A stretch of 64,000 nt of DNA from Acidobacteriota bacterium (GTDB lineage: Bacteria > Acidobacteriota > Aminicenantia > Aminicenantales > Aminicenantaceae): the NCBI GenBank assembly GCA_018894615.1, contig JAHIPL010000005.1, positions 1,062 through 65,061 of the forward strand. Direction: 5' to 3'. A program made the translations under genes and the position numbers. Below, piece after piece: positions 1 through 48,943 of the stretch. The notes beneath the pieces were generated by a model. It did no database searches. It worked only from the letters and a program-made list of their open reading frames with translations, and was not told where the DNA came from. Positions within the stretch are counted from its first letter, which is position 1, and every line of letters begins with the position of its first letter.

Positions 1-1905
1 GATTCCAAGTGGGGTCTCAATCAGGGATTCGACACCTATTTTGACCGCTTTGACCTGAGCAAATACAAAACCATCTCCCTGGGCAATGTGCAGCGCCGCG
101 GTGACGAGGTCATCGATGAAACCCTGGCCTGGCTTGACCAGCACAAGGCCGGGCCCTTTTTTTCCTGGATTCATCTTTATGATCCCCACACCCCCTATGA
201 GCCGCCGCCGCCTTTTGATACCCGGTATTCCAATCGACCTTATGTGGGAGAGATCGCCTACACCGACTCCCAGTTGGCCCGCCTGTGGCTCTATCTGGAA
301 TCGCAGGGGCTCGTCGAAAACACCGTGCTGGTTTTTACCTCGGACCACGGTGAAAGCCTGGGAGAGCATCAGGAGAGCACCCATGGGTTTTTTATCTATC
401 AGGAAGGCATCCACGTTCCTCTTATTATAGTTACACCCGTTGAAAAATACCGGGGACACACGAACGGCTCCGTCGTCACCCTCGTCGACATCATGCCCAC
501 CGTTCTGGAAATGGCGGGATTGCCCTTGCCGGATCAGCTTCAGGGGCGCAGTCTTCTGCCTCTGATGACCGGGGAAAAAAAGTTCGAGGACTCCTTCGCC
601 TACGCCGAAACCTATTATCCCCGTTTCCATTACGGCTGGAGTGAACTGAAGAGCGTGCAGGACCGTCGGTTCAAGCTGATCATCGCTCCGGACCTCGAAC
701 TCTATGATCTGGACAACGATCCGGACGAAATGTCCAATCTCGTTGTTTCCATGCCGCAGGAAACACGGCGTCTTATGGAGTGGGCCAATTCCTTTCTGGA
801 GGAATCGGGGCAAAACGCCCTGGAGATGGACTACTCGAAAATGGACGAGGAGTCCCGCCAAAAGCTGGCCGCGCTTGGATATATCGGCACCTTTACGGAC
901 GCGTCCTCCCTTCAGGGCCGCCGGCTGGGTGATCCCAAGGAAAAAATCGTTGTCTTTAATCAGCTCTCCGAGGCGAAGGAAATGGGACTTCAGGGAGAAA
1001 CCGAAGAAGCCCTTCAGCTGATCGACCGCATCATCGCCGACGATCCCGATATCATCGACGCCTATTTCATGAAAGGCAACCTCTATTTCAAGGACAACCG
1101 GTTTCAGGAGGCCCTGGATACCTTCCGGATTGTTCTTGATAAAAAACCGGACGACGACTTCACGGCCATCAACATCGCCAACTCCCACATCCGTTTGGGC
1201 CAGCTGGACGAAGCGGAATCGTTCCTTACGGATTTTGTCAGAACGGTCCCTCCCGACTCTCAGATTTACCTCATCCTCGGAAATATCAGCTATATCCAGC
1301 GGGAATTTGACGAGGCGGAAAAACATTATTTGAAATGCATCGAACTCAATCCGGCATCCGCCTCCGCGTTCACCGCACTGGGCGGGATTTATGTCATCAC
1401 CGAACGCCTGGACGAAGCCAAATCCTTGCTCGATAAGGCCCTGGCCAGCAATCCTTCTCTACCCAATCTCCACTACAACTTCGCGCAGCTGTGGGAGGCG
1501 AAGAACGATCCGGCGGCCGCCGAGAAGGAATACAGGGTCGAGCTGGAAAATGTCCCTCACAATTTTCGAGCCAGCTTCAATCTGTCCCGTCTCTGCCGTC
1601 TTCAGAACCGCACGGACGAAGAGCAGGCCTTTCTGGAACAGACCGTGGAGTCCAATCCCCGCTTCCCCATGCCCTATTTGTATCTGGCGCGGATTTATCT
1701 CAACCGGAGTGAAAACTACCAGGAGGCGGTGGATCTTGTTCTGAAGGGCATCGAATTGAAGCCGGAGGAAAAGGACCTTCCTCTCGGATATTTTCTGCTG
1801 GCGGACCTCTACAACCGTCTTGGAAACCAGGTAAAATCCGAGGAATTTGCGGTTAAGGGGAAAGAGCTCGTCGATAAACTGCGCTCCAAAGGTCAAGCGG
1901 GCTGA
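1..1905 (+). CDS. Sulfatase-family hydrolase with C-terminal TPR repeats. 5'-truncated at the window edge: the frame is open from nt 1 and the listed GTG at 88 is internal.
   Basis: In-frame translation from nt 1 gives DSKWGLNQGFDTYFDRF. Sulfatase C-terminal-core motifs are present (FTSDHGE, LYDPHTPYEPP). About 300 aa of TPR-like repeats follow (AYFMKGNLYF, ALGGIYV, LARIYLN). Confidence 0.7.
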   Translation, partial: DSKWGLNQGFDTYFDRFDLSKYKTISLGNVQRRGDEVIDETLAWLDQHKAGPFFSWIHLYDPHTPYEPPPPFDTRYSNRPYVGEIAYTDSQLARLWLYLESQGLVENTVLVFTSDHGESLGEHQESTHGFFIYQEGIHVPLIIVTPVEKYRGHTNGSVVTLVDIMPTVLEMAGLPLPDQLQGRSLLPLMTGEKKFEDSFAYAETYYPRFHYGWSELKSVQDRRFKLIIAPDLELYDLDNDPDEMSNLVVSMPQETRRLMEWANSFLEESGQNALEMDYSKMDEESRQKLAALGYIGTFTDASSLQGRRLGDPKEKIVVFNQLSEAKEMGLQGETEEALQLIDRIIADDPDIIDAYFMKGNLYFKDNRFQEALDTFRIVLDKKPDDDFTAINIANSHIRLGQLDEAESFLTDFVRTVPPDSQIYLILGNISYIQREFDEAEKHYLKCIELNPASASAFTALGGIYVITERLDEAKSLLDKALASNPSLPNLHYNFAQLWEAKNDPAAAEKEYRVELENVPHNFRASFNLSRLCRLQNRTDEEQAFLEQTVESNPRFPMPYLYLARIYLNRSENYQEAVDLVLKGIELKPEEKDLPLGYFLLADLYNRLGNQVKSEEFAVKGKELVDKLRSKGQAG

Positions 1906-2070
1906 TCCGGCCTGTCGATCCGTCCCGTTCTTCAGTGGAGCACCCCTCCCCAAAGTTGCATTCAAGGCGGTGTTGCCTTACAATATTTAGTCCTTCAAAT
2001 TCCTTTTTTGACGGGTGGAGAGGCGTGTGATCAAAGCCAACAAAATCATAAATAAATAAAGGAGAAAAAT

Positions 2071-2592
2071 ATGAGCGAGATCAGCGAACAGGTGAAAAAC
2101 GCCATCCGCGAAGCCATCAAGCTGGAAATCAACGGACGAAAATTCTTCAACCATGCCGCCGATATGACCTCCCACGAGACGGGACAAAAGATGTTCCGCT
2201 ATCTGGCGGAGGAAGAAGTCAAACATATGGAAGTTTTTGGAGATCTTTTCAGCCAGATCCTGGGGGATGAGGATTGGAGACAGCTTGTTCATCCGGATGA
2301 GATGAAGGGCGAGGCTCCCCTCGTGACCAAGCTGAAAGCGCGGATGGCCCATGCCGAAAGCAAGGGAGAAGTTGAAGCCCTCAGCATCGGAATGGAGCTG
2401 GAATCGGATGCCATCCGTCATTTTCAGGAAGCCGTAGCCGCAACGAACGATCCCAAGGCCAAGTAAATATTCCGCGAGATTGCGGAGGAAGAGAAATTCC
2501 ACTACGATCTACTTCAGGCGCAGTATGATTACGTCATGCACACGGGCAACTACCTTGACGGCGCCGAGTTTAGAATGGACGGAAAGTGGTGA
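2071..2592 (+). pseudogene. Ferritin-like/rubrerythrin-like diiron four-helix-bundle protein interrupted by an in-frame TAA at 2464-2466. The frame continues open to TGA at 2590-2592.
   Basis: The first 131 aa carry E..H motifs (EEEVKHMEVF, ELESDAIRHF). After the TAA the same frame encodes IFREIAEEEKFHYDLLQAQYDYV, the expected last helix with its EEEKFH metal ligands. It is a paralog of the intact gene at 47038-47490. Confidence 0.5.
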
Positions 2593-2624
2593 TTGAAAAA
2601 TCGAAGAGCGTCGTTCCTGAATAA

Positions 2625-3323
2625 ATGTTTTCATCCCCTCTGATTGAAACAAATGATCTGGGGAAAGTTTATTCAACCGGCCGGATTCAGGTAAAGGCTC
2701 TCGACGGGATCAATCTCTCCGTTCCCAAAGGAGCTTTTCTGGGAATTGCCGGGCCTTCGGGCTCGGGAAAATCCACGCTGATGAATCTTCTCGGCGGATT
2801 GGACACTCCGACTTCCGGTTCCATTCAGGTTGCCGGAAGAATGGTGTCCTCACTTAATCATAAGGAACTGGCGCTTTACCGCCGTTTTCAGGTGGGGATG
2901 ATTTTCCAGTCATTCAACATCATTCCGGCCTACACGGCGAAAGAGAACGTCGCGCTTCCGCTCCTTTTTTCCGGAGTGCCCAAAAGGGAGCGCCTTCGTC
3001 GGGCCGAGGCCGTTCTGAGTCTGGTGGGCCTCGAAGAGCGGAAGGACCATAGACCATCCGAACTTTCGGGCGGTGAACAGCAGCGGGTGGCCGTCGCCCG
3101 GGCGCTTATCAACTCTCCGGATATCCTTCTGGCCGATGAGCCGACCGGCAATCTTGACAGCCGCACCTCGCAGGGCATCCTGAATCTTCTTCAGGAGATG
3201 AACCGGACCCAAAACCTGACCGTCCTGCTGATATCCCACGAGGGGTATCTTTTAAAAAAATATGCCGATGACATCATTTACCTTCATGATGGAAGGGTAA
3301 GGGAATCCGAGGCCGTGGAATAA
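2625..3323 (+). CDS. ABC transporter ATP-binding protein (LolD/MacB-type)
   Basis: Walker [13 protein letters not shown] signature [15 protein letters not shown], Walker [13 protein letters not shown]. Confidence 0.85.
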
Positions 3324-3325
3324 CC

Positions 3326-4669
3326 ATGCGCGTTGTCGATTCCCTGGAACAGGCTCTGTCCAATCTCTGGAAAAAAAAGCTGCGAACGTTTTTGACAACC
3401 TTCGGTGTCGTGATCGGCATCGGGGCTCTGGTGTCCATGATCTCCTTCGGACAGGGAGTCCAATACAATGTGACCGACCGGTTTCAAAAACTGGATCTCT
3501 TCAATTACATCACCGTTTTCCCGGCTGGGAAACAATCCCCGTTCTCTGGAGAACGAGCCGGATCTTCCGCCGAAAGCCCCAGGTCCGTGCTGGATGATGA
3601 TTCTTTGAAGGAGATAACGGCTCTCGAAGGGGTGGAGTCGGCCTTTCCCGAAGTTCGTTTTCCCGCCCGGATTCAATTTCGGGAGAAAACCCGATTCAGT
3701 CTGGTCCAGGTCATGCCCGCCGCCGTCGCCGCCACCGAACTGGTGAAACTGCGGGCGGGAGCATCTTTTGCGGACGATTATTCCCTTTCCCTCATCATCA
3801 GTGATTCCTTGTTGACCGAAATGGGAATCACCGACCCTGATTCGGTTATCGGCGAAGAGATCACACTTCTGACGCTGATGCTTGATTTAAGCCGTTTGAA
3901 CCTGTCGGACATGTCTTCACTGTTTCAAAACGGAAAACTTCCCTTTTCCGAGCAGAGTCACCGCTTCACCATTGCCGGAGTGGCGGAGCGCATGGGTTTC
4001 GGTGGTCCCACTCCGCTTCGCAGCGATGTTTATATCCCGTCCGGAACGGCAGCGGATATCCCGACCATATCGCTGACGAGCATCTGGGACTTTTTCCGTT
4101 CTTCCGGAAGCGCGGATGAATACTCCATGGTCAATGTCAAGGTGGATTCCCCCCGTGCTGTCGACCGTGTCAAGGCGTTTGCCGAAGAGAAGGGATTCCA
4201 GTCGTTCGCTCTCATCGACCAGCTGGAGGAAATCAGGACGGGTTTTGTCTTTATGGACATGTTCCTGGCGGCGGTGGGGATGATCGCTCTGGTCGTGGCG
4301 TCTCTTGGGATCGTCAACACCATGGTGATGGCTATCCTGGAACGAACCCGGGAAATCGGCATCATGAAGGCCGTCGGCGCCGGTGACGGGGATATTCGAA
4401 AAATATTTTTGTTTGAAGCGGGTCTTATCGGGCTGGCCGGAGGGGTGTTCGGCCTGTGCCTGGGCTGGATCGTAACAACGGCCATCAATTGGATCATCAA
4501 CGGTATCCTGGCCCGCCAGGGGATTCCTTTCGTCGACTATTTTTATTTTCCCCGTTGGTTGAATATGGGTTCCATTGTGTTTTCCATTCTTGTCAGCCTG
4601 ATCGCCGGGCTATATCCCATGCAGCGGGCGGCCCGGGTGGATCCGGTGGTGGCGCTCCGGCATGACTGA
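3326..4669 (+). CDS. ABC transporter permease, FtsX/MacB/LolE family
   Basis: Adjacent to the ATPase. It has an N-terminal TM, a large periplasmic domain and C-terminal FtsX-like TM segments (ILERTREIGIMKAVGA). Confidence 0.75.
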   Translation: MRVVDSLEQALSNLWKKKLRTFLTTFGVVIGIGALVSMISFGQGVQYNVTDRFQKLDLFNYITVFPAGKQSPFSGERAGSSAESPRSVLDDDSLKEITALEGVESAFPEVRFPARIQFREKTRFSLVQVMPAAVAATELVKLRAGASFADDYSLSLIISDSLLTEMGITDPDSVIGEEITLLTLMLDLSRLNLSDMSSLFQNGKLPFSEQSHRFTIAGVAERMGFGGPTPLRSDVYIPSGTAADIPTISLTSIWDFFRSSGSADEYSMVNVKVDSPRAVDRVKAFAEEKGFQSFALIDQLEEIRTGFVFMDMFLAAVGMIALVVASLGIVNTMVMAILERTREIGIMKAVGAGDGDIRKIFLFEAGLIGLAGGVFGLCLGWIVTTAINWIINGILARQGIPFVDYFYFPRWLNMGSIVFSILVSLIAGLYPMQRAARVDPVVALRHD

Positions 4670-4737
4670 GGGGCCGGCGGCCGATTGACCGGGAAACGGA
4701 AGAATGGATGTTCCGAATTTTTGATGGAGGAAAAAAG

Positions 4738-5985
4738 ATGAATGATAAACGACGGGTGAGTTTGATCGGCATATCGGCGCTGCTGATCCTTTTTGCTTCC
4801 TGTGCCGGAACGAATGAAGCGGACCTTTTGGAAAGGGCGCGGGTCATTCATGACGAGGTCCTGACCGTGGACACCCACTGTGACACTCCGATGCGTCTGA
4901 TCCGGGGGGAGTACGACATGGGCGAACGGCATGAATCCGGCGCGCGCGGAGGGAAAATCGATCTTCCCCGGATGAAGGAGGGCGGTCTGGATGCCGAGTT
5001 TTTTGCCGCCTTTGTCGGACAGGGAGAATTGACGCCGGAAGGATATGCCGCCGCCAGGGAAAGGGCCGACCGGATGATCGATGCCGTCGAAGAGATGTGC
5101 AGCCGTTATCCGGAGCTCGTGGAGAAGGCGACAACACCGGAGGATGCCGAACGGCTGGAGAACGCCGGGAAACGGGCGGCTTTCATCGGAATCGAGAACG
5201 GCTATCCCATCGGGCGGGATTTGGGTCTCGTGAAACACTTTTTTGATCGGGGGGTTCGCTCCATCACCCTCTGCCACGGCGGGGACAACGATATCTGCGA
5301 TTCCGCCACGGAAAGACGTAATCCTGAAGATGAAGGATTGAGTGAATTCGGCAGGGCGGTTGTCGAAGAGTGCAACCGTCTCGGTGTGATGGTCGATCTC
5401 AGCCATCTTTCGGAACGGTCCATCTACGATGTGCTGGAGCATTCCAGGGCTCCTGTTTTTGCCTCACATTCCAGCGTCCGGGCCCTCTGTGATCACCCGC
5501 GCAATTTAACAGACGACATGCTGAAAAAGCTTAAAGAGAATGGCGGGGTCATCCAGATTTGTCTGGTCAGCAGTTTTCTCAAAACACCCGAACCCAATCC
5601 CGAACGGGATAAGGCGCGAGAGGAACTCCGGGAACAGTACAGCACATCCGCCGACAGCGAGGATGAAGGGGTCCGTGACCGGATGCGCCAGGAATACCGC
5701 CGGATCCTTGAAAAACATCCCATGGAACGAGCCACTGTCAAGGATCTTGTGAACCACATCGATTATGTCGTTCGGCTGATAGGCGTGGCCCATGTCGGAA
5801 TCGGAACCGATTTTGACGGGGGAGGCGGCATCGACGGCTGTGATCATGTGGGCGAGATGCCTAACATTACGGTGGAACTGCTGCGGCGGGGTTATTCAAA
5901 AGAGGACATCGCCAAAATCTGGGGAGGAAATGTCATGCGCGTGCTGCGGGACGTCATCGAAACGGCTGCCGGGACGACCTCCTGA
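4738..5985 (+). CDS. Membrane dipeptidase (peptidase M19 family), lipoprotein. Start chosen at the ATG with the GGAGGA RBS; the ORF track starts at 4708.
   Basis: Lipobox LLILFASCAGT. Renal-dipeptidase-like HCDTP motif near the N-terminus and (beta/alpha)8 metallo-dipeptidase length. Confidence 0.7.
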   Translation: MNDKRRVSLIGISALLILFASCAGTNEADLLERARVIHDEVLTVDTHCDTPMRLIRGEYDMGERHESGARGGKIDLPRMKEGGLDAEFFAAFVGQGELTPEGYAAARERADRMIDAVEEMCSRYPELVEKATTPEDAERLENAGKRAAFIGIENGYPIGRDLGLVKHFFDRGVRSITLCHGGDNDICDSATERRNPEDEGLSEFGRAVVEECNRLGVMVDLSHLSERSIYDVLEHSRAPVFASHSSVRALCDHPRNLTDDMLKKLKENGGVIQICLVSSFLKTPEPNPERDKAREELREQYSTSADSEDEGVRDRMRQEYRRILEKHPMERATVKDLVNHIDYVVRLIGVAHVGIGTDFDGGGGIDGCDHVGEMPNITVELLRRGYSKEDIAKIWGGNVMRVLRDVIETAAGTTS

Positions 5986-6088
5986 CAATCAGCTCTTCGT
6001 CTTGCTTTTCGCGGGGTGTTTCCCTATGATGTGAGAAAAGGCCATTCCCATCAAAGAGCGACCCTCACGGCCGGCTTTAGAGAAAACC

Positions 6089-7579
6089 ATGATTTTTGTA
6101 AAAAAGTTCAAAGAATTTCATCTTTTCTCTTCACTTCAGACGCGGATTCTGATCATGGTCATTCTTCTCCTGACGCTGATCGTCGGCGCTCTCCTCATGA
6201 TGATCGGGAAGCGCGAGGTTCAGGCCATCTACAAGGAACAGATCCAGAAAGGGATTTTTATCTCAAGATACATCTCTCTTCGAATTCAGGATCAGTTTGT
6301 TCTTTCGAACGAAGAGGAATTAGCGCAGGAGATTCAAAGTCTGATCGATTACGAGCTGATATACGTCGTTGTCTACGACACCTTCGGTATGCCCTTCGCC
6401 TCCACCCGTTTTATTCAGCAGTTCGAGGAGATCTACCAGTACAGCCGGCTGCCCGTCATCGCCCGTCCGGACAGTTATTATTCCGAACGCAAGATGCTGC
6501 GGTTTCCTCTCACAGGCCAGATCCTGCGCATTCAGGAAGTGGAGATTCCTGTTTTTTATATGGAAAAATCCCAGAAATGGGGAAGCATCAAAATCGGGCT
6601 GTCCATGGAAGGCAGCCTGAAGGAAATCACGAAAACACGGCTTATCCTTCTTTTGATCGGATCGGCGGGGCTCCTCGTCGGCCTCATCGGGGCCATTTTG
6701 CTGGCCCGCCATATCACCAATCCCGTCAAGAAGCTTGTCGAAGGAACGAACAGGGTCGCCAGGGGGGACTTTTCCCATACGATCGTCATCCGCAGTCGCG
6801 ATGAGATCGGTGAGCTGGCGCAGAGTTTCAACCACATGAACCAACAGCTGCAGCACAGCCGGGCAAAGATTGAATCGGCCAATCAGCGACTCGTCGAAGC
6901 GGAAAAGCTGGCCTCCATCGGCCGGATGTCCGCCGGTATCGCCCATGAGATCAGGAATCCTCTGACATCCGTGAAGCTTAATATTCAGAAGGTGATGGGG
7001 AGCGACCATCTCCATGATGTGGAAAAGGAACACCTGGATATTTCCCGGGAGGGAATCCGGCAGATTGAAATATTCATCAAGGAACTGTTGAACTTCACCC
7101 GCATCTCCGTATTGAATCTGGATTATTTTTCTCCGATTGTTATTATGGACGAGTCCATCAAGATGCTGCTGGAATCTCTGGAACGGAAAAATATTCACAT
7201 CACACGTAATTACCGGGAGGAAGCCCTGCCGGTGCGGGTGGATGCCGATAAAATACGGCAGGTCTTTATCAACCTTCTTCGCAACGCCTCAGAAGCGGTC
7301 GATGACGGGGGATCGATCGAGGTGGCTGTTTCCCCGGCGGCGGAAAACGGCAGAAAGTGGATCCGGACCTCCATATCGGACGACGGCTGCGGCATTCCGG
7401 AGAAGGACTGGGAGTACGTATTCGAACCGTATTACACCACCAAAGCTTCGGGATTCGGCCTGGGCCTGGCCAATGCCCGCAAAATTATCGAACAGCACCA
7501 GGGCATCATCCGAGTCACACACAAAACCGGAGGGGGCACCAGATTTGACATCCTCCTCCCGTTGGAAGAGGAAATATGA
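6089..7579 (+). CDS. Sensor histidine kinase (TM, HAMP, HisKA, HATPase)
   Basis: H-box IAHEIRNPLTSV, G-box DDGCGIPE and GFGLGLA; N-terminal TM and a HAMP-like segment. Confidence 0.85.
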   Translation: MIFVKKFKEFHLFSSLQTRILIMVILLLTLIVGALLMMIGKREVQAIYKEQIQKGIFISRYISLRIQDQFVLSNEEELAQEIQSLIDYELIYVVVYDTFGMPFASTRFIQQFEEIYQYSRLPVIARPDSYYSERKMLRFPLTGQILRIQEVEIPVFYMEKSQKWGSIKIGLSMEGSLKEITKTRLILLLIGSAGLLVGLIGAILLARHITNPVKKLVEGTNRVARGDFSHTIVIRSRDEIGELAQSFNHMNQQLQHSRAKIESANQRLVEAEKLASIGRMSAGIAHEIRNPLTSVKLNIQKVMGSDHLHDVEKEHLDISREGIRQIEIFIKELLNFTRISVLNLDYFSPIVIMDESIKMLLESLERKNIHITRNYREEALPVRVDADKIRQVFINLLRNASEAVDDGGSIEVAVSPAAENGRKWIRTSISDDGCGIPEKDWEYVFEPYYTTKASGFGLGLANARKIIEQHQGIIRVTHKTGGGTRFDILLPLEEEI

Positions 7580-35654: not shown

Positions 35655-36194
35655 TTTTTATTCAACCCCGTTCGTTCTTTTACCGGATTTTTTTGATCAT
35701 TCCATCTGATTTCCTGCTGTCATAGATCAAATGAATCGATCCGTGTCACGCTTATCGACAATTCGGGAGGGATCGGTATGCATCAATTGATTTTTTTCCG
35801 GATCGGATGAATAATGGTCGCATCGGATGAAGGAGGACAATATGGGAAAAGGCCGAGGTCGGGCAGGTCCGCCAGGCGCATATTGTCAAGCGGTTTGAGG
35901 AGCAGACGATCACCCACAAGGGGAAGACCGTCAACGCTTACAGCGCCGAGGTCGAAGACGACGAAGGCCGGAAAATGTCCGCGACAGTGAGCCTGGAGCT
36001 GCCGCCGATCGCCCTCTTCTCGTGCGAGGACGAAACCCTCAGGATGACCATCAATGACTGGGGGAGCGGGGCCGAGTCCAAGGTTGAGGGCCTGCCCATT
36101 CCATTCTTCCTGTGGATTGTGGAGCAGGTCGCCGCCGGTGCGGACGACTCCAAGCCCAAAAAGGTCATCAAAAAAAATCCTGATCCGCAGGCAG

Positions 36195-37982
36195 TCAGTC
36201 GATTTTGAGCCAGGTGAACCAGAGGGGATGGTGCTTCTTGTACCATTCGAGCACGTCCCTCAGAATGACCTGGTCCTCCTTTGAGATGACCTCGGCCGGT
36301 ATTCTGTCGAAGTGCACCCGGATCTGTCCCTCCCGTTCATACTCCAGCGCCTCCGAACAGAGGGTCTGGAGTTCGTTTCGAATGCGGCCTGAGTCGGAAA
36401 TTTTGACGGCTCGGGAGCGGAAATCCTCACCGTAGATGAACCGGATGAGGAGCGGATTGAAGACCAGCCGCTGCTCTTCGGGCTTTTCCATCAGCCGCAT
36501 GGTGAGGGTGACCCTCTTGTCGGCAACCGGAGTGGCGATGCGGGCCGTGACCTTGTAGACGCCTTCTTCCAGGGCTTCCACACCGGGAGCGCCGGAGTAG
36601 GGATCATCACACATGTACCCCGAAAGGGCAACGACGTCCCAGTGCTTTTCCGGGAAAAAATCGTCGGCGCGGATGACCCTGTCCGTGTCGGGCAGTCCCG
36701 CCTCGTGGGCTTCCAGAATCAGTTCCCTGTAAAGGCTTATTTTTTCATCGTCCAGCTTGAACTCGAAGAGCGCTTCCAGTTTTTCCTTGAAGTCGGGAGC
36801 GTCCGGATCGAGAGACATGACCCTCTGTTCCTTTTCGATGGGAAGTTCGAATTTGGAGGTGAAGGTGACGAGGGTTCCGTCGAGACCGAGCATGGGCGCC
36901 AGGCTGACCGCCTGCATGGCTTCGGCCGAGGCCGCGTATCCGTCGATGATGAAGAGGTGCTTCTCGTTTTCGCTGTCTTTCCAGGTGCCGACGGTATAGG
37001 TCGGCGCATAGGTCCCTGAATCCGTAAAGGCTTTCATCCCGGACGGCAGGTCCCAGTCTCCTTCCACAAGATGAACCCCGGTTTCCCGCCACTGATCCCA
37101 CAACCACCCCAGCCGCTTGATGCGGCTCTGTCCGCCCAGAGTCCAGACATGGATGTTCTCCCTCTGCAGCCCGGGGTAGGTTTTCTCGACGGCATCCACG
37201 ATTTTCCGCCGCGGGGTTAAAAAATCGATGAGAACGGAATCCTCGGCCGCCTTCCTCACCACCTCACAGGGAAGGAACAGATTACCCATATAGCCTTCGT
37301 AGGGTTTGGTGATGATGAGCGGCTGATTGAAAATATGAAGGACGGTCAGCGGGCCCGTCGATTTCCCCTCGGCGAATCGGGAGGTGTTTTCCAGCGTGTC
37401 GATGGCCGCGCCCCAGACGGTTATGCCGGACTCCTTGATTTCCGTCCAGAACTCTTTCCAGCCGTAGACCTCGTCGTTCAGGAGGCGGGTCACCCGGGCA
37501 TCCAGCCATTTGGCTACCTGGGGACGGGCATACACACGGCCGAAACCCAGCTGGGGGTTTGAGCCCATCTCCTTTGTTTCCCCCACTTTTGGCATCAGCC
37601 CCTCACCCATGCAGACCAGGATGGCGTGGTTTTCGGGCAGCTGTCTCGAGGCGTACCAAAGGCTCTCGCTCATGGCGTAGGCCGATATGGCGTCGGCGTC
37701 TTTTTTGATTTGGTTCAGGATCTTTTTTTCCTGGTTCAATCCCTCTCCGAAACGTCCGAAAAGCTTCGTGCCGAGCGCGGTCACGGCCACCGTCATGAGC
37801 ATGAGCCTTTCCATGCGGCCGTCCATGAAAGAGATATTATTGCTGAATTCTGGGACGGGTTCTCCCCTCAGCCATTCGACCTCGACGTCTTCCAGCCAGA
37901 GATGCATGCGTCCCAGAATGGGGCGGGTGTCAAAAGCCCACTGAGAAATGAGATCCCTTCTTTTGCGGTCGGATAATGTCAT
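36195..37982 (-). CDS. Large cytoplasmic protein of unknown function (595 aa)
   Basis: Long ORF with strong coding character and no recognisable catalytic motif. I cannot assign a family from sequence alone. Confidence 0.5.
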   Translation of the reverse strand: MTLSDRKRRDLISQWAFDTRPILGRMHLWLEDVEVEWLRGEPVPEFSNNISFMDGRMERLMLMTVAVTALGTKLFGRFGEGLNQEKKILNQIKKDADAISAYAMSESLWYASRQLPENHAILVCMGEGLMPKVGETKEMGSNPQLGFGRVYARPQVAKWLDARVTRLLNDEVYGWKEFWTEIKESGITVWGAAIDTLENTSRFAEGKSTGPLTVLHIFNQPLIITKPYEGYMGNLFLPCEVVRKAAEDSVLIDFLTPRRKIVDAVEKTYPGLQRENIHVWTLGGQSRIKRLGWLWDQWRETGVHLVEGDWDLPSGMKAFTDSGTYAPTYTVGTWKDSENEKHLFIIDGYAASAEAMQAVSLAPMLGLDGTLVTFTSKFELPIEKEQRVMSLDPDAPDFKEKLEALFEFKLDDEKISLYRELILEAHEAGLPDTDRVIRADDFFPEKHWDVVALSGYMCDDPYSGAPGVEALEEGVYKVTARIATPVADKRVTLTMRLMEKPEEQRLVFNPLLIRFIYGEDFRSRAVKISDSGRIRNELQTLCSEALEYEREGQIRVHFDRIPAEVISKEDQVILRDVLEWYKKHHPLWFTWLKID

Positions 37983-38130
37983 AATATTTCACCTTTCATA
38001 TGATGAATGATAATATGAAGAACCCATCATTTGACTGTTATATAACAGAGGCGCCGGATTTATGCAATATCTCATCCTCCTTTCTGATCTACGTCAAGGA
38101 AATGTCCGTCATCATAAAAAAATAGACGAT

Positions 38131-38862
38131 TCAGGAAAGGAATCGAAGTGATTTGGGAACGCGCTCCACATGATAGATAAGCACCCGCTGAAAAAATTTT
38201 CGAATCCCCTGTAATTCTTCAGGAGTGAAATCGCTGACCGGTTCTGTCGGAGGGGGATTCTTTTTTGTCCAGATGATAAACGGGTGAAGGGCGGCCGGAA
38301 CGATGTCTTTTTTATGGGCGGCGCACCCATCGCAGAGGGCGCCGTCCAGCCTGGGTGAGAGCCAGGCTGATTGAACGAGGGCGCCGCCGCAGGTGCCGCA
38401 AGCCCGCAGATCCGGCTCCAGACCCCCGGCACGCAGAAGCCAGGCCTCAAAATAGGCGCTCAGCAGCTCCAGTTCGCCCCCTTTTTTGAGGGCCTGAAGG
38501 GTCCGCAGCAGAAGACGAAAAAGGATATCTTCTCTGGAATGAAGGGGAACGAATTCCTGAACCAGTTCGGCGTAGTAGCAGAGACTAAACGAGACGCGGC
38601 TGTCGCACTGGAGATCAAAAAAGGATTCCTGCAGTTCACACTGGCTGACCGTTACAAGATCCCGGCCTTCCTTTTCATAATAAACGATGTGCACATGGGA
38701 GGGGGGTTCCAGGCTGCTTCCGAAGCGGTTTCCGAATTTGCGGGCTCCTTTGGCGATGCCCCGCAGAATCCCCTTCTCCCTGGTGAAAAAGGTGATCAGC
38801 TTGTCCTGTTCGCTGAAGGGGCCTGTTTGAAGGATGAGGGCTTCCGAGCGTTCAATCGCCAT
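38131..38862 (-). CDS. recO: DNA repair protein RecO
   Basis: N-terminal OB fold MAIERSEALILQTGPFSEQDKLITFFTREKGILRGIAKGARK; C-terminal Cys cluster. Confidence 0.85.
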   Translation of the reverse strand: MAIERSEALILQTGPFSEQDKLITFFTREKGILRGIAKGARKFGNRFGSSLEPPSHVHIVYYEKEGRDLVTVSQCELQESFFDLQCDSRVSFSLCYYAELVQEFVPLHSREDILFRLLLRTLQALKKGGELELLSAYFEAWLLRAGGLEPDLRACGTCGGALVQSAWLSPRLDGALCDGCAAHKKDIVPAALHPFIIWTKKNPPPTEPVSDFTPEELQGIRKFFQRVLIYHVERVPKSLRFLS

Positions 38863-40346: not shown

Positions 40347-41696
40347 TCAGACGAAGGAAATTCTGAGATCCTGAATCTTTTTTTCCAGGTACACCGGTTC
40401 AACGCCCAATTCAACGGCGGCTTCTTTGATTCTCCAGTTGTGTCTGATCAGGGTCTGATGGATGTATTCCTTTTCAAACTGGGCCCGGGCCTGATCCAGC
40501 GGCTTGATCCCCGACACAAACTGGGATTCGATCGGCTCCACCAGGAGAAACAGGTGGGATTCCCTTATTTCATCATCTTTGACCATAATCACGAAACGTT
40601 CGATCACATTGATCAGCTCGCTGATGTTGCCCGGCCAGGAATAATTGGTGAATGCCTCGAGGGCCTCCTCGCTCATTTTTTTTTGTTTTTTCCCGTCTGA
40701 ATCGGCGAAGTGTTTGAGGTAATGATCGATGAGCAGAGGAATGTCCTCCCGCCTCTCCCGCAGGGAAGGAAGGAGAATGGGGATGACATTCAGTTTGTAG
40801 TATAAATCCTCCCGGAATTCATCCCTGGTGATCATTTTTTTCAGATCCCTGTCGGTGGCGGCGATGATGCGTGTGTTGAAGGGGATTTTTTCGCCGTCTT
40901 CAGCGGATTCCACCTGTCCCGCGTCCAGGACTTTCATCAACCGGGCCTGTGTGGAGAGGGGAATTTCCGCCACCTCATCCAGGAAAAGAACGCCGTTGTT
41001 CGCCAGTAGGATTTTGCCTTTCTTGGCACCCGTTGTCTCCGAAGCCGCTCCTGATGAATAACCGAACAATTCTCCGTCTATCAGGTTTTCAGGAATCGCC
41101 CCGCAGTTGACCTGTACAAATTTATTGTTCCGCCGCGGGCTCTGCTGATGGATGAGGCGGGCCACCAGTTCCTTTCCTGTTCCGTTTTCTCCGGTGATAA
41201 GGACGCGGCCGTTGGATGGGGCGGCGGTCTGAACGGCCTCCTTGACTTTTTTGATGGAAGGGTGCTCCCCGATCAGATTTCGGCGGGCTTCAATTTTTTC
41301 CCTCAGCAGCAGGTTCTCCGCTTCCAGGTGACTCTGTTTCAGCGCGTTGTTGACCGTGAGGACCACTTTTTCCAGGGAAAGGGGTTTCTCCAGATAGTCA
41401 TATGCCCCCAGTTTTGTCGCCCGCACGGCAGACTCGACGGACCCGTGACCGGAGATCATCACGACCTGAATATGAGGGCACAGGTCTTTTACTTCGCACA
41501 GGATGTCGATGCCGTTTTTTCCGGGAAGCCAGATATCCAGCAGGATCAGGTCAAAGGATTCCGTCCGGAGGAGAGACAGGCCTTCCTCACCTGACGCCGT
41601 CGTCCGAACGGTGAAGTTTTCATCCTCCAGAATTCCCTGCAGAGAGGAACGGATCCCCGCTTCATCGTCGATAATGAGTATTGTGTTGTGGCTCAT
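40347..41696 (-). CDS. Sigma-54-dependent response regulator (NtrX/AtoC-like)
   Basis: Receiver ILIIDDEAGIRSSL...LLDIWLPG; AAA+ GENGTGKE, GAIPENLIDGELFGY; Fis HTH. Confidence 0.9.
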   Translation of the reverse strand: MSHNTILIIDDEAGIRSSLQGILEDENFTVRTTASGEEGLSLLRTESFDLILLDIWLPGKNGIDILCEVKDLCPHIQVVMISGHGSVESAVRATKLGAYDYLEKPLSLEKVVLTVNNALKQSHLEAENLLLREKIEARRNLIGEHPSIKKVKEAVQTAAPSNGRVLITGENGTGKELVARLIHQQSPRRNNKFVQVNCGAIPENLIDGELFGYSSGAASETTGAKKGKILLANNGVLFLDEVAEIPLSTQARLMKVLDAGQVESAEDGEKIPFNTRIIAATDRDLKKMITRDEFREDLYYKLNVIPILLPSLRERREDIPLLIDHYLKHFADSDGKKQKKMSEEALEAFTNYSWPGNISELINVIERFVIMVKDDEIRESHLFLLVEPIESQFVSGIKPLDQARAQFEKEYIHQTLIRHNWRIKEAAVELGVEPVYLEKKIQDLRISFV

Positions 41697-46535: not shown

Positions 46536-46934
46536 TCACTTTTTCTTCCCTCTGGCGATATCAAAAGCGTCCAGCGCGACAAGATAGTTGAGAAGGCCGG
46601 CCCCGGCGATGTAAGCGGTTCCGTACTCGAAGGACAGGCTGGACAGTTTTCCCAATCCGATGGGAGTCAGTCGGGACAGCAGATAGAGAAGCCCGTAACC
46701 AAGATCGGAGAAAAATTCGAGGATTGTCAGAGGATTTTCGGTTTGGTATTCAAATATCCGGCCGTCCATCAGGAGTCCCAATCCCGCCATGGCGGTGATG
46801 CAGACGAAGAAGATGGCCGCCCGGGCATATTTTCGCTGGAGCCCATGACCCAGCCCGGGAATGAACCACCCCGCGGCCAGCAGAAGAATGTTTCGTAAAG
46901 TCATTTTTGAAAATGCATCATACCCTAACACCAC
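46536..46934 (-). CDS. Membrane protein of unknown function (3 TM; motif GWFIPGLGHG)
   Basis: Hydrophobic helices; no catalytic motif. Confidence 0.45.
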   Translation of the reverse strand: MVLGYDAFSKMTLRNILLLAAGWFIPGLGHGLQRKYARAAIFFVCITAMAGLGLLMDGRIFEYQTENPLTILEFFSDLGYGLLYLLSRLTPIGLGKLSSLSFEYGTAYIAGAGLLNYLVALDAFDIARGKKK

Positions 46935-46977
46935 AGGATTGGCAAGATTCGGTCGATTTTGTGAATCGGGCCTTGTG

Positions 46978-47037: not shown

Positions 47038-47490
47038 ATGGACTTTTCAAGTTTCGAAAAAATAGTTGAGTTCGCCATCGCCAGGGAAGAGGATGCCATT
47101 CAGGCCTACGGGGCGATGTCAGGGAAGGCCAAGGTTCCAGGACTCAAAAATCTGCTTCTCGAGCTTCGGAATGAAGAAAAAAATCATAAAAGACTGCTGG
47201 AGGATCTCGATAAAAAAGAATTGAAAGACCTTGAGATCAAGGACGTCCTCGATCTCAAAATATCCGATTATCTTGTGGAAGAACCTCTGAACGGCGATGT
47301 CACTTTTCAGGATCTGTTGATATTTGCCGCCAAAAAGGAGCAGAAGGCGGTTGAACTGTACACCGTCCTGCGCGATCGCCTGGATCGACCGGAATTCATC
47401 AAGCTGTTTGATTATTTGATTGAACAGGAAAAAAACCATAAACTGAAACTGGAAGCGGAATACGACGACAGCGTCTATCAGGAAGATTGA
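47038..47490 (+). CDS. Rubrerythrin-like ferritin-like diiron protein (no rubredoxin domain). The ORF track starts at 46861; ATG 47038 has the RBS GGAAGGAG.
   Basis: Two ExxH helices (EEKNHKRL, EQEKNHKLK) plus upstream Glu ligands; 150 aa four-helix bundle. Confidence 0.75.
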   Translation: MDFSSFEKIVEFAIAREEDAIQAYGAMSGKAKVPGLKNLLLELRNEEKNHKRLLEDLDKKELKDLEIKDVLDLKISDYLVEEPLNGDVTFQDLLIFAAKKEQKAVELYTVLRDRLDRPEFIKLFDYLIEQEKNHKLKLEAEYDDSVYQED

Positions 47491-47520: not shown

Positions 47521-47682
47521 ATGGAAAAATGGGAATGCACGGCCTGCGGTTATATTTACGACCCGGAAAATGGAGATCCGGACAGCGGCGTCAAGCCGGG
47601 AACCCCTTTTGAGGAACTCGCCGAAGACTGGGTTTGCCCCCAGTGCGGGGTCGGAAAAGAATTTTTTCAGAAGATGTCCTGA
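47521..47682 (+). CDS. rub: Rubredoxin
   Basis: [49 protein letters not shown]: two CxxCG knuckles, 53 aa, RBS AAGGAGGA. It has no ORF-track entry because it is under 60 aa. Confidence 0.9.
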
Positions 47683-47737: not shown

Positions 47738-48943
47738 ATGCGCGTCTGTATTGTAGGGAATGGTCTGGCCGGGGCCATGTTCGCCAAGTCCCTGAGGGAT
47801 CTGGGGGGGGACATGGATATCGACATCTACGGGGAAGAACCCTATCTGTATTATCCCCGTCCCAACATGATCGAGTATCTGGCCGGCCGGATTCCCTTTG
47901 AGCGCATGTTCGCGTTTGAGGCGGACTGGTATGACAAAAGGCGTCTCGGTGTGCATTTGAAAACACCGGTGACGGGATTGTTTCCCGATTTGCGGGAGAT
48001 CGAAATCGCAGGGAATCAGAGGGAGACCTACGACGTTCTGGCCGTCGCCTCCGGAGCCCGGTCCTTTGTCCCTCCCATCAAAGGGGCGGATTCGTCCCAT
48101 GTCTTCACCTTCCGGACTCTGGATGAGTGCCGGGCTCTGATCGACCGTCTCCAAAAAAAGAAAGGCCTGATTATCCTGGGAGGAGGGCTGCTGGGGCTTG
48201 AAATCGCCAGAGGGGCCCGCGCTCGGGGAGCGGACGTGGATGTGGTTGAATTCTTCGGCCGTCTTCTGCCCCGGCAGCTGGATGAGGAGGGTGCGGCTCT
48301 CCTGCGGAAGCAGATAGAGGGAATGGGCATTCGAGTCCATCTGGGTAGGGCCTGCCGCGAGATCCGGAACGACGGCGAAAATCTCCGCCTTCAGTTCAAG
48401 GAAGGGGAGGACATGGTCGCGGAATCCACCGTGATTGCCGCCGGGGTGCGGCCCAATATCGATCTGGCTCAAAGTGCCGGACTGGAAACCGATAAGGGAT
48501 TGGTCGTGAATGATGGGCTGCAGACGTCCCATCCCTCCATCTACGGCATCGGCGATGCCGTCCAGTTCCGCGACCGGGTGTACGGCATCATCCCCGCCGC
48601 CTTCGAACAGGCGAGAACGGCGTCCCGGCATGTCATCGGAGAGGACGTCCGTTACACTGGAACCATCCCCTCCAATACCCTAAAAATCGCCGGCCTGGAT
48701 GTCACTTCCGTCGGTCTCGTCAATCCGGAAAATGAGGAGACGGAGGAGATAGGCTGGAGGGAAGAAGAACGGGGCATGTACAAAAAGCTTGTTTTGCGGG
48801 ACGGAATGATCATCGGCGCCATCTGGATGGGGACAAAACAGGGGATCGGCGAGATCAACAGGCTCATCGCGGCGGGAACCTCCATTGAGCAGTGGAAAAA
48901 TGACATCCTCCATGAGGATTTTGATTTTTCAGTCATCCTATGA
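47738..48943 (+). CDS. NAD(P)H:rubredoxin oxidoreductase (FAD-dependent pyridine nucleotide-disulfide oxidoreductase family)
   Basis: N-terminal FAD motif RVCIVGNGLAGA, second Rossmann motif ILGGGLLGLE, downstream GDAVQF motif; adjacent rubredoxin. Confidence 0.8.
   Translation: MRVCIVGNGLAGAMFAKSLRDLGGDMDIDIYGEEPYLYYPRPNMIEYLAGRIPFERMFAFEADWYDKRRLGVHLKTPVTGLFPDLREIEIAGNQRETYDVLAVASGARSFVPPIKGADSSHVFTFRTLDECRALIDRLQKKKGLIILGGGLLGLEIARGARARGADVDVVEFFGRLLPRQLDEEGAALLRKQIEGMGIRVHLGRACREIRNDGENLRLQFKEGEDMVAESTVIAAGVRPNIDLAQSAGLETDKGLVVNDGLQTSHPSIYGIGDAVQFRDRVYGIIPAAFEQARTASRHVIGEDVRYTGTIPSNTLKIAGLDVTSVGLVNPENEETEEIGWREEERGMYKKLVLRDGMIIGAIWMGTKQGIGEINRLIAAGTSIEQWKNDILHEDFDFSVIL

Follow-up and report, generated by a model that had tools for sequence, protein, structure and literature searches.

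The ferritin-like gene that starts at position 2071 of the window, by which we mean the whole 64,000-nucleotide stretch of DNA that was analysed, is interrupted by an in-frame TAA produced by a single transversion (AAA, Lys, to TAA) that is confined to one assembly. The reading that we favour, with a probability of roughly 0.65, is that this private A>T nonsense substitution created a real and recent loss-of-function allele. Whether it proves to be a nascent pseudogene or an artefact, the change is an ordinary private nonsense substitution and not a recoding event.

Under the favoured reading, an A>T transversion at position 2464 has turned Lys132 into a stop codon in an otherwise intact and strongly conserved gene of an Aminicenantes bacterium; the change is private to the strain or assembly and would be very recent. 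Translation would end in the loop ahead of helix 4, yielding a 131-aa, three-helix fragment without the second ExxH pair, which is predicted to be almost certainly incapable of folding into the bundle or of binding a di-iron centre and is therefore probably non-functional. The allele would thus be a nascent pseudogene, possibly a population variant that happened to be caught by the assembly consensus.

A four-helix diiron gene with an internal stop codon

The ORF opens with the ATG at 2071, and the reading frame past the TAA continues as IFREIAEEEKFHYDLLQAQYDYVMHTGNYLDGAEFRMDGKW up to the TGA at 2590-2592 (Table 1). Coordinates and sequence agree with the earlier note, which had described a ferritin-like diiron gene split by TAA, and the product joined across the stop is a complete 173-aa rubrerythrin/ferritin-like four-helix bundle. 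When the stop was masked, the Pfam domain PF02915 (Rubrerythrin) matched residues 12-150 of the joined product at 59.5 bits, crossing the stop, and the 131-aa ORF alone matched over residues 12-130 at 39.1 bits; the gathering threshold of this domain is 22.8 bits. An AlphaFold2 model of the joined product, for which 22 homologues were supplied as input, had a mean pLDDT of 86.6 and a pTM of 0.82, with main helices at residues 6-32, 36-64, 99-124, and 134-158. By these helix limits, the stop (codon 132) falls within the loop that leads into helix 4, and the ORF as encoded retains three of the four bundle helices. The presence of a fourth helix downstream of the TAA, as had been proposed, is borne out by the modelled helix at 134-158 and by the invariance of E141 and H144 in the alignment.

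Table 1. Features of the ferritin-like gene, its downstream neighbours, and the rubredoxin-linked module, in window positions
Feature	Position	Strand	Remarks
Shine-Dalgarno-like AGGAG	2060..2064	+	6 nt 5' of the ATG; read from the sequence; kept in the 94%-identical relative L001
Truncated ORF, 131 aa	2071..2466	+	helices 1-3, predicted ligands E19, E49, H52, E111; from PF02915, AlphaFold2 limits, and alignment
Premature TAA, codon 132	2464..2466	+	T at base 2464; conspecific contigs all have A (AAA, Lys)
In-frame remnant, 41 codons and TGA	2467..2592	+	helix 4 (134-158), E141-x-x-H144, C-terminal tail AEF.MDGKW
ABC-transporter ATPase	2625..3323	+	downstream neighbour of the ferritin-like gene
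MacB/FtsX-type permease	3326-4669		next after the ABC ATPase
Rubrerythrin-domain protein, 150 aa ("paralog" of the earlier note)	47038..47490	+	same Pfam domain as the ferritin-like gene
Rubredoxin gene, 53 aa	about 47521-47682		next after the 47038 ORF
Rubredoxin-reductase-like flavoprotein, 401 aa	47738-48943		Rubredoxin_C domain; after the rubredoxin gene

All six predicted metal ligands (E19, E49, H52, E111, E141, and H144) are invariant in the family alignment of 22 homologues. The di-iron ligand set E ... ExxH ... E ... ExxH is complete in the joined product and incomplete in the truncated one, since E141 and H144 are encoded after the TAA. Part of the diiron site would accordingly be missing from the short product, as had been claimed, although the extent is less than the half that was then suggested: two of the six predicted ligands and one of the four helices.

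Structure searches with the joined product (Foldseek against the PDB) returned ferritin-like bundles as the best matches, among them 2fzf of P. furiosus, MJ0754 of M. jannaschii, and many bacterioferritins. The closest structure was 2fzf (phmmer E = 2.4e-7 in a PDB sequence search, Foldseek E = 6e-4), and the PDB sequence search also matched TM1526 of T. maritima (1vjx). Judged by these matches and by the model, the joined product is a ferritin-like (Rubrerythrin-domain, COG1633-type) predicted diiron protein. It has the four-helix ligand pattern in common with the stand-alone COG1633-type PF02915 proteins (2fzf, TM1526 1vjx, and MJ0754) and differs from them in that the window gene is interrupted and that its own family carries an invariant C-terminal tail, AEF(Q/R)MDGKW. 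Classical rubrerythrins have a C-terminal, rubredoxin-like Cys4 domain (CxxC...CxxC); the 173-aa sequence contains no cysteine and no Rubredoxin domain detected by Pfam, and for want of that domain the window protein is not a classical rubrerythrin. Matches to three further models stayed below their cut-offs, namely EncB_fam (NCBIfam; 39.4 bits against 90), ferrit_encaps (NCBIfam; 33.8 against 125), and PF22277 (Pfam; 17.3 against 27), and despite the weak, sub-threshold similarity to encapsulin cargo in the NCBIfam models, no encapsulin gene lies near the ferritin-like gene. The C-terminal tail (G.WL..AEF(Q/R)MDGKW; window 2545-2589, residues 159-173) is near-invariant or invariant throughout the family, yet it was modelled with a pLDDT of only 47-63; such a tail may serve as a docking or interaction peptide.

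Conservation of the full-length form and the private base change

Conspecific contigs were retrieved using the downstream ABC ATPase gene as an anchor. An identical ATPase protein is present on 15 contigs, of which 10 were retrieved, and these aligned with the window without indels over as much as 6.3 kb, at 99.3-99.9% identity. Nine of the 10 hold the complete ferritin-like gene, where the gene upstream of the ATPase is called as an intact 173-aa Rubrerythrin-domain protein, and the remaining one (L011) begins past codon 132. A tenth contig covering the site, from JGI, was found with a DNA pattern in which the variant base was left free. Codon 132 reads AAA in all ten covering contigs, which come from ten different samples or assemblies, and also in a 94%-identical relative (L001). 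The window differs from the ten covering contigs at 3-5 positions per 522 nt of the ferritin-like gene, and within positions 1-6400 just two bases are private to it, the A>T at 2464 and a synonymous C>T at 1140. The TAA allele was not encountered a second time: the exact DNA pattern with N at the variant base gave 0 matches among genome contigs and a single match among metagenome contigs, reading AAA, and the exact 131-aa protein has no record in the protein collection. The 41 codons after the stop carry no further window-private change, and 10 of the 12 substitutions that separate the window from L001 across these codons are synonymous; the event, if real, would therefore be very recent.

The same picture holds at greater evolutionary distances. 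A homologue search of a collection of 5.8 billion proteins yielded 479 homologues, and the best 120 of these are 170-174 aa long, nearly all of them exactly 173; the named matches among the best 120 are annotated as "ferritin family protein" or "rubrerythrin" and derive from Candidatus Aminicenantes MAGs. None of the homologues listed has the 131-aa form. In the alignment of 22 homologues, position 132 is Lys in every sequence, and the most conserved part of the protein is the stretch that follows it (IF..I.EEEKFH.DLLQ.Q.D, together with the tail AEF.MDGKW), with E140, E141, K142, F143, H144, and the C-terminal tail invariant. Given the near-uniform homologue length of exactly 173 aa and the peak of family conservation past the stop, the split arrangement is not a matter of chance. 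The earlier note had also entertained the opposite outcome, in which the short form would be the norm and the downstream helix unconserved; the usual length of 173 aa and the conservation of the post-stop stretch clearly contradict it.

A species-level set of 80 loci (48-72% identity, one genome per GTDB species, nearly all of them Aminicenantes MAGs) had K at codon 132 in 38 cases, E in 38, D in two, Q in one, and A in one, and no in-frame stop was present in the gene at any of the 80 loci. The comparison with orthologs that had been proposed as a check thus returned a sense codon at position 132 in 10 of 10 conspecific contigs, in L001, and in 80 of 80 species-level loci.

Explanations for the stop codon

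Whether the window base is real was approached through an indirect test, in which 29 conspecific loci were piled on the window, giving 27,555 positions with at least four other assemblies and 230 segregating sites. Over these positions, 17 SNVs and no indels are private to the window. The 15 private SNVs in coding sequence comprise seven synonymous, seven missense, and one nonsense change, where random substitutions in the window genes would be expected to be 24% synonymous and 3.3% nonsense; at least seven synonymous changes out of 15 arise by chance with P = 0.045, a value that concerns 15 sites only and says nothing on the single site 2464. The synonymous excess weakly favours real variants over errors. 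The window thus resembles a cleanly assembled sequence from a genuine strain that is slightly distinct, and a true private nonsense SNV is accordingly plausible.

The main rival holds that an error of sequencing, polishing, or consensus building put the T at 2464, or that the minority allele of a mixed population was called there, and that the true gene reads AAA and is intact. We regard this as the less probable account, albeit one to be taken seriously, as the variant is a singleton missing from all ten covering conspecific contigs, the gene is otherwise perfectly preserved with no decay downstream, and nonsense changes in genes so conserved are over-represented among errors. Artefact-like lesions do arise at the same Ala-Lys-Lys site, as a frameshift in another assembly (L110) illustrates, and the clustering of private SNVs could mean that the window is a mosaic assembly of co-existing strains. 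Error is, however, at odds with the lack of a single private indel over 27.5 kb of comparable sequence and with an excess of synonymous changes among the private SNVs, a pattern typical of real variants; moreover, A>T is not a typical homopolymer-length error, and slippage is excluded for the window lesion, in which one base was substituted and the A run is only four long.

Several features of the assemblies were recorded alongside this test. The private SNVs are tightly clustered at 36189-36214, 41258-41265, and 48016-48018, with 2-4 SNVs falling within 3-26 nt and adjacent missense changes included, a pattern that points to short tracts of recombination, or to a consensus that is a mosaic of co-existing strains, rather than to independent point mutations. 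In the species-representative MAG that contains L110:3386-3400 (CAZLLG010000026.1), an A9 run shifts the frame by +1 at precisely the place of the window TAA, where relatives read GCA-AAA-AAA-ATA, an A8 run. The Ala-Lys-Lys-Ile codons at this site form an A7-A8 homopolymer in many Aminicenantes species (e.g., L001:440-450 and L033), and the A7-A9 tract could be a slippage-prone or error-prone spot. In L002:314-2281 (Logan SRR7522511), the upstream sulfatase-TPR gene is split into calls of 240 and 391 aa, whereas it measures 764-776+ aa on other conspecific contigs, so broken genes occur sporadically in assemblies of this population.

The two accounts in which the interrupted gene would still work fare much worse. 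One accepts the TAA as real and supposes that read-through or recoding, for example through a suppressor tRNA or a leaky context, still yields a useful amount of the full-length 173-aa protein; we consider it very improbable. The same low standing applies to its stricter version, in which the TAA is fixed in the strain and usefully decoded by a suppressor tRNA encoded elsewhere or through a leaky AAG-TAA-A; if that were true, the intact downstream frame would reflect continued selection and not mere recency. That frame is indeed perfectly intact, and since position 132 accepts K, E, D, Q, or A, depending on the species, a residue inserted there by a near-cognate tRNA would probably be harmless; as much would hold for any fresh nonsense allele. 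The stop is followed by A, and TAA-A is not the strongest termination context in E. coli. Against read-through, a stop at 132 occurs in none of the ten conspecific contigs, the 80 species-level loci, or the 22 aligned proteins, and with no relative carrying it, no decoding mechanism could have been selected. Genome-wide reassignment of TAA was rejected, as TAA is the ordinary terminator of 22 of the 54 long, non-overlapping ORFs in the window; the other window genes agree, uninterrupted, with the gene calls on conspecific contigs. The window holds no suppressor tRNA, its sole tRNA being tRNA-Ala(GGC), and nothing distinctive was seen in the RNA past the stop, whose fold is no better than that of shuffled sequences (positions 2455-2560: MFE -25.5 kcal/mol, z = -1.5; 19 of 200 shuffles fold equally well; no bacterial consensus signal exists for comparison). 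Both release factors recognise UAA, the least leaky of the bacterial stops, and with a basal leakage of about 1e-4 to 1e-3, full-length protein would be made in traces. To our knowledge, no programmed read-through of UAA has been established in bacteria, and a literature search on Aminicenantes and stop codons returned nothing relevant to recoding.

Least credible of all is a functional short or split form, in which the 131-aa product would work alone or as an oligomer, or a separately made helix 4 would assemble with it. Two-helix encapsulated ferritins, which build di-iron sites across subunit interfaces, offer a precedent, and the weak NCBIfam matches to EncB/EncFtn models point the same way; those scores, however, lie far under the cut-offs. 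The 131-aa form is seen in none of the ten conspecific contigs and in no homologue listed. No ATG, GTG, or TTG with a ribosome-binding site follows the TAA, and the first ATG after it is codon 156, past the ExxH motif; a separately restarted helix-4 peptide was rejected on these grounds. Among the three options that had been put forward at the outset, nonsense mutation and sequencing error both stand, with AAA in the close relatives, and the basis for read-through or recoding falls away, with the stop in no relative.

Genomic neighbourhood and comparison with known systems

The ferritin-like gene lies 33 nt upstream of the ABC ATPase gene in the window species and in the 94%-identical relative (L001:603-1301), and the MacB/FtsX-type permease gene follows the ATPase in the window species; the three genes may be co-transcribed. 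The ORF at 47038 belongs to a different setting. The order of this ORF, the rubredoxin gene, and the flavoprotein gene is found in the window and in 23 conspecific contigs and constitutes a classical rubredoxin-linked oxidative-stress module. The earlier note had pointed to the 47038 ORF as an intact paralog of the broken gene. The two do have a Pfam domain in common, but close paralogy does not hold up, as the similarity to the 173-aa family is limited to the ExxH helices (BLASTP E = 0.007) and the ORF sits in another operon. We thus rejected it as a close, function-backing paralog; on sequence comparison, it is a distant superfamily relative and not a recent duplicate. Some redundancy between its product and that of the broken gene is possible.

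Structural variation among conspecific contigs was observed elsewhere in the window. The interval between a 595-aa ORF and recO (37982-38131) shows strain-level structural polymorphism: some conspecific contigs (L015:10738-14966 and L016:2976-7075) have genes for a 741-aa PKD-domain protein and a 620-663-aa protein beside recO, and neither of these large genes is present in the window or in other conspecific contigs. After window position 46959, upstream of the gene for the 150-aa rubrerythrin-like protein, some conspecific contigs hold extra sequence (84 aligned bases in total across loci, first seen in L015), and the adjacent DUF6677 gene (46536-46934, - strand) is called with either 122 or 84 aa, depending on the contig.

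For practical purposes, the annotation should mark this gene as an internally stopped pseudogene, unless reads show AAA, in which case the base should be corrected. The window TAA is unsuitable as evidence of recoding and has little significance beyond annotation. If the variant is real, it would illustrate on a small scale how a strain within an uncultivated Aminicenantes population can lose one ferritin-like protein of the several that serve in oxidative stress or iron handling. A check of private variants against conspecific metagenome contigs, as performed here, is a quick way to settle flags of "split genes".

Known recoding systems such as the UGA read-through that yields the Q-beta A1 protein, selenocysteine insertion at UGA, and pyrrolysine insertion at UAG likewise combine an in-frame stop with a conserved open frame, although the likeness is superficial. 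Those systems, and the reassignments of genetic codes 4, 25, and 15, involve TGA or TAG and are conserved among orthologues or reassigned genome-wide; the window stop, unlike them, is a TAA, is present in one assembly only, and has the same codon terminating many other window genes. The closer comparison is with nonsense-mutation pseudogenes and strain-level loss-of-function alleles, in which a one-base change converts a sense codon to a stop, relatives retain the full-length gene, and the gene has not decayed, all of which is common to the window gene. This class of nonsense alleles is already known, and the window case is no different in kind.
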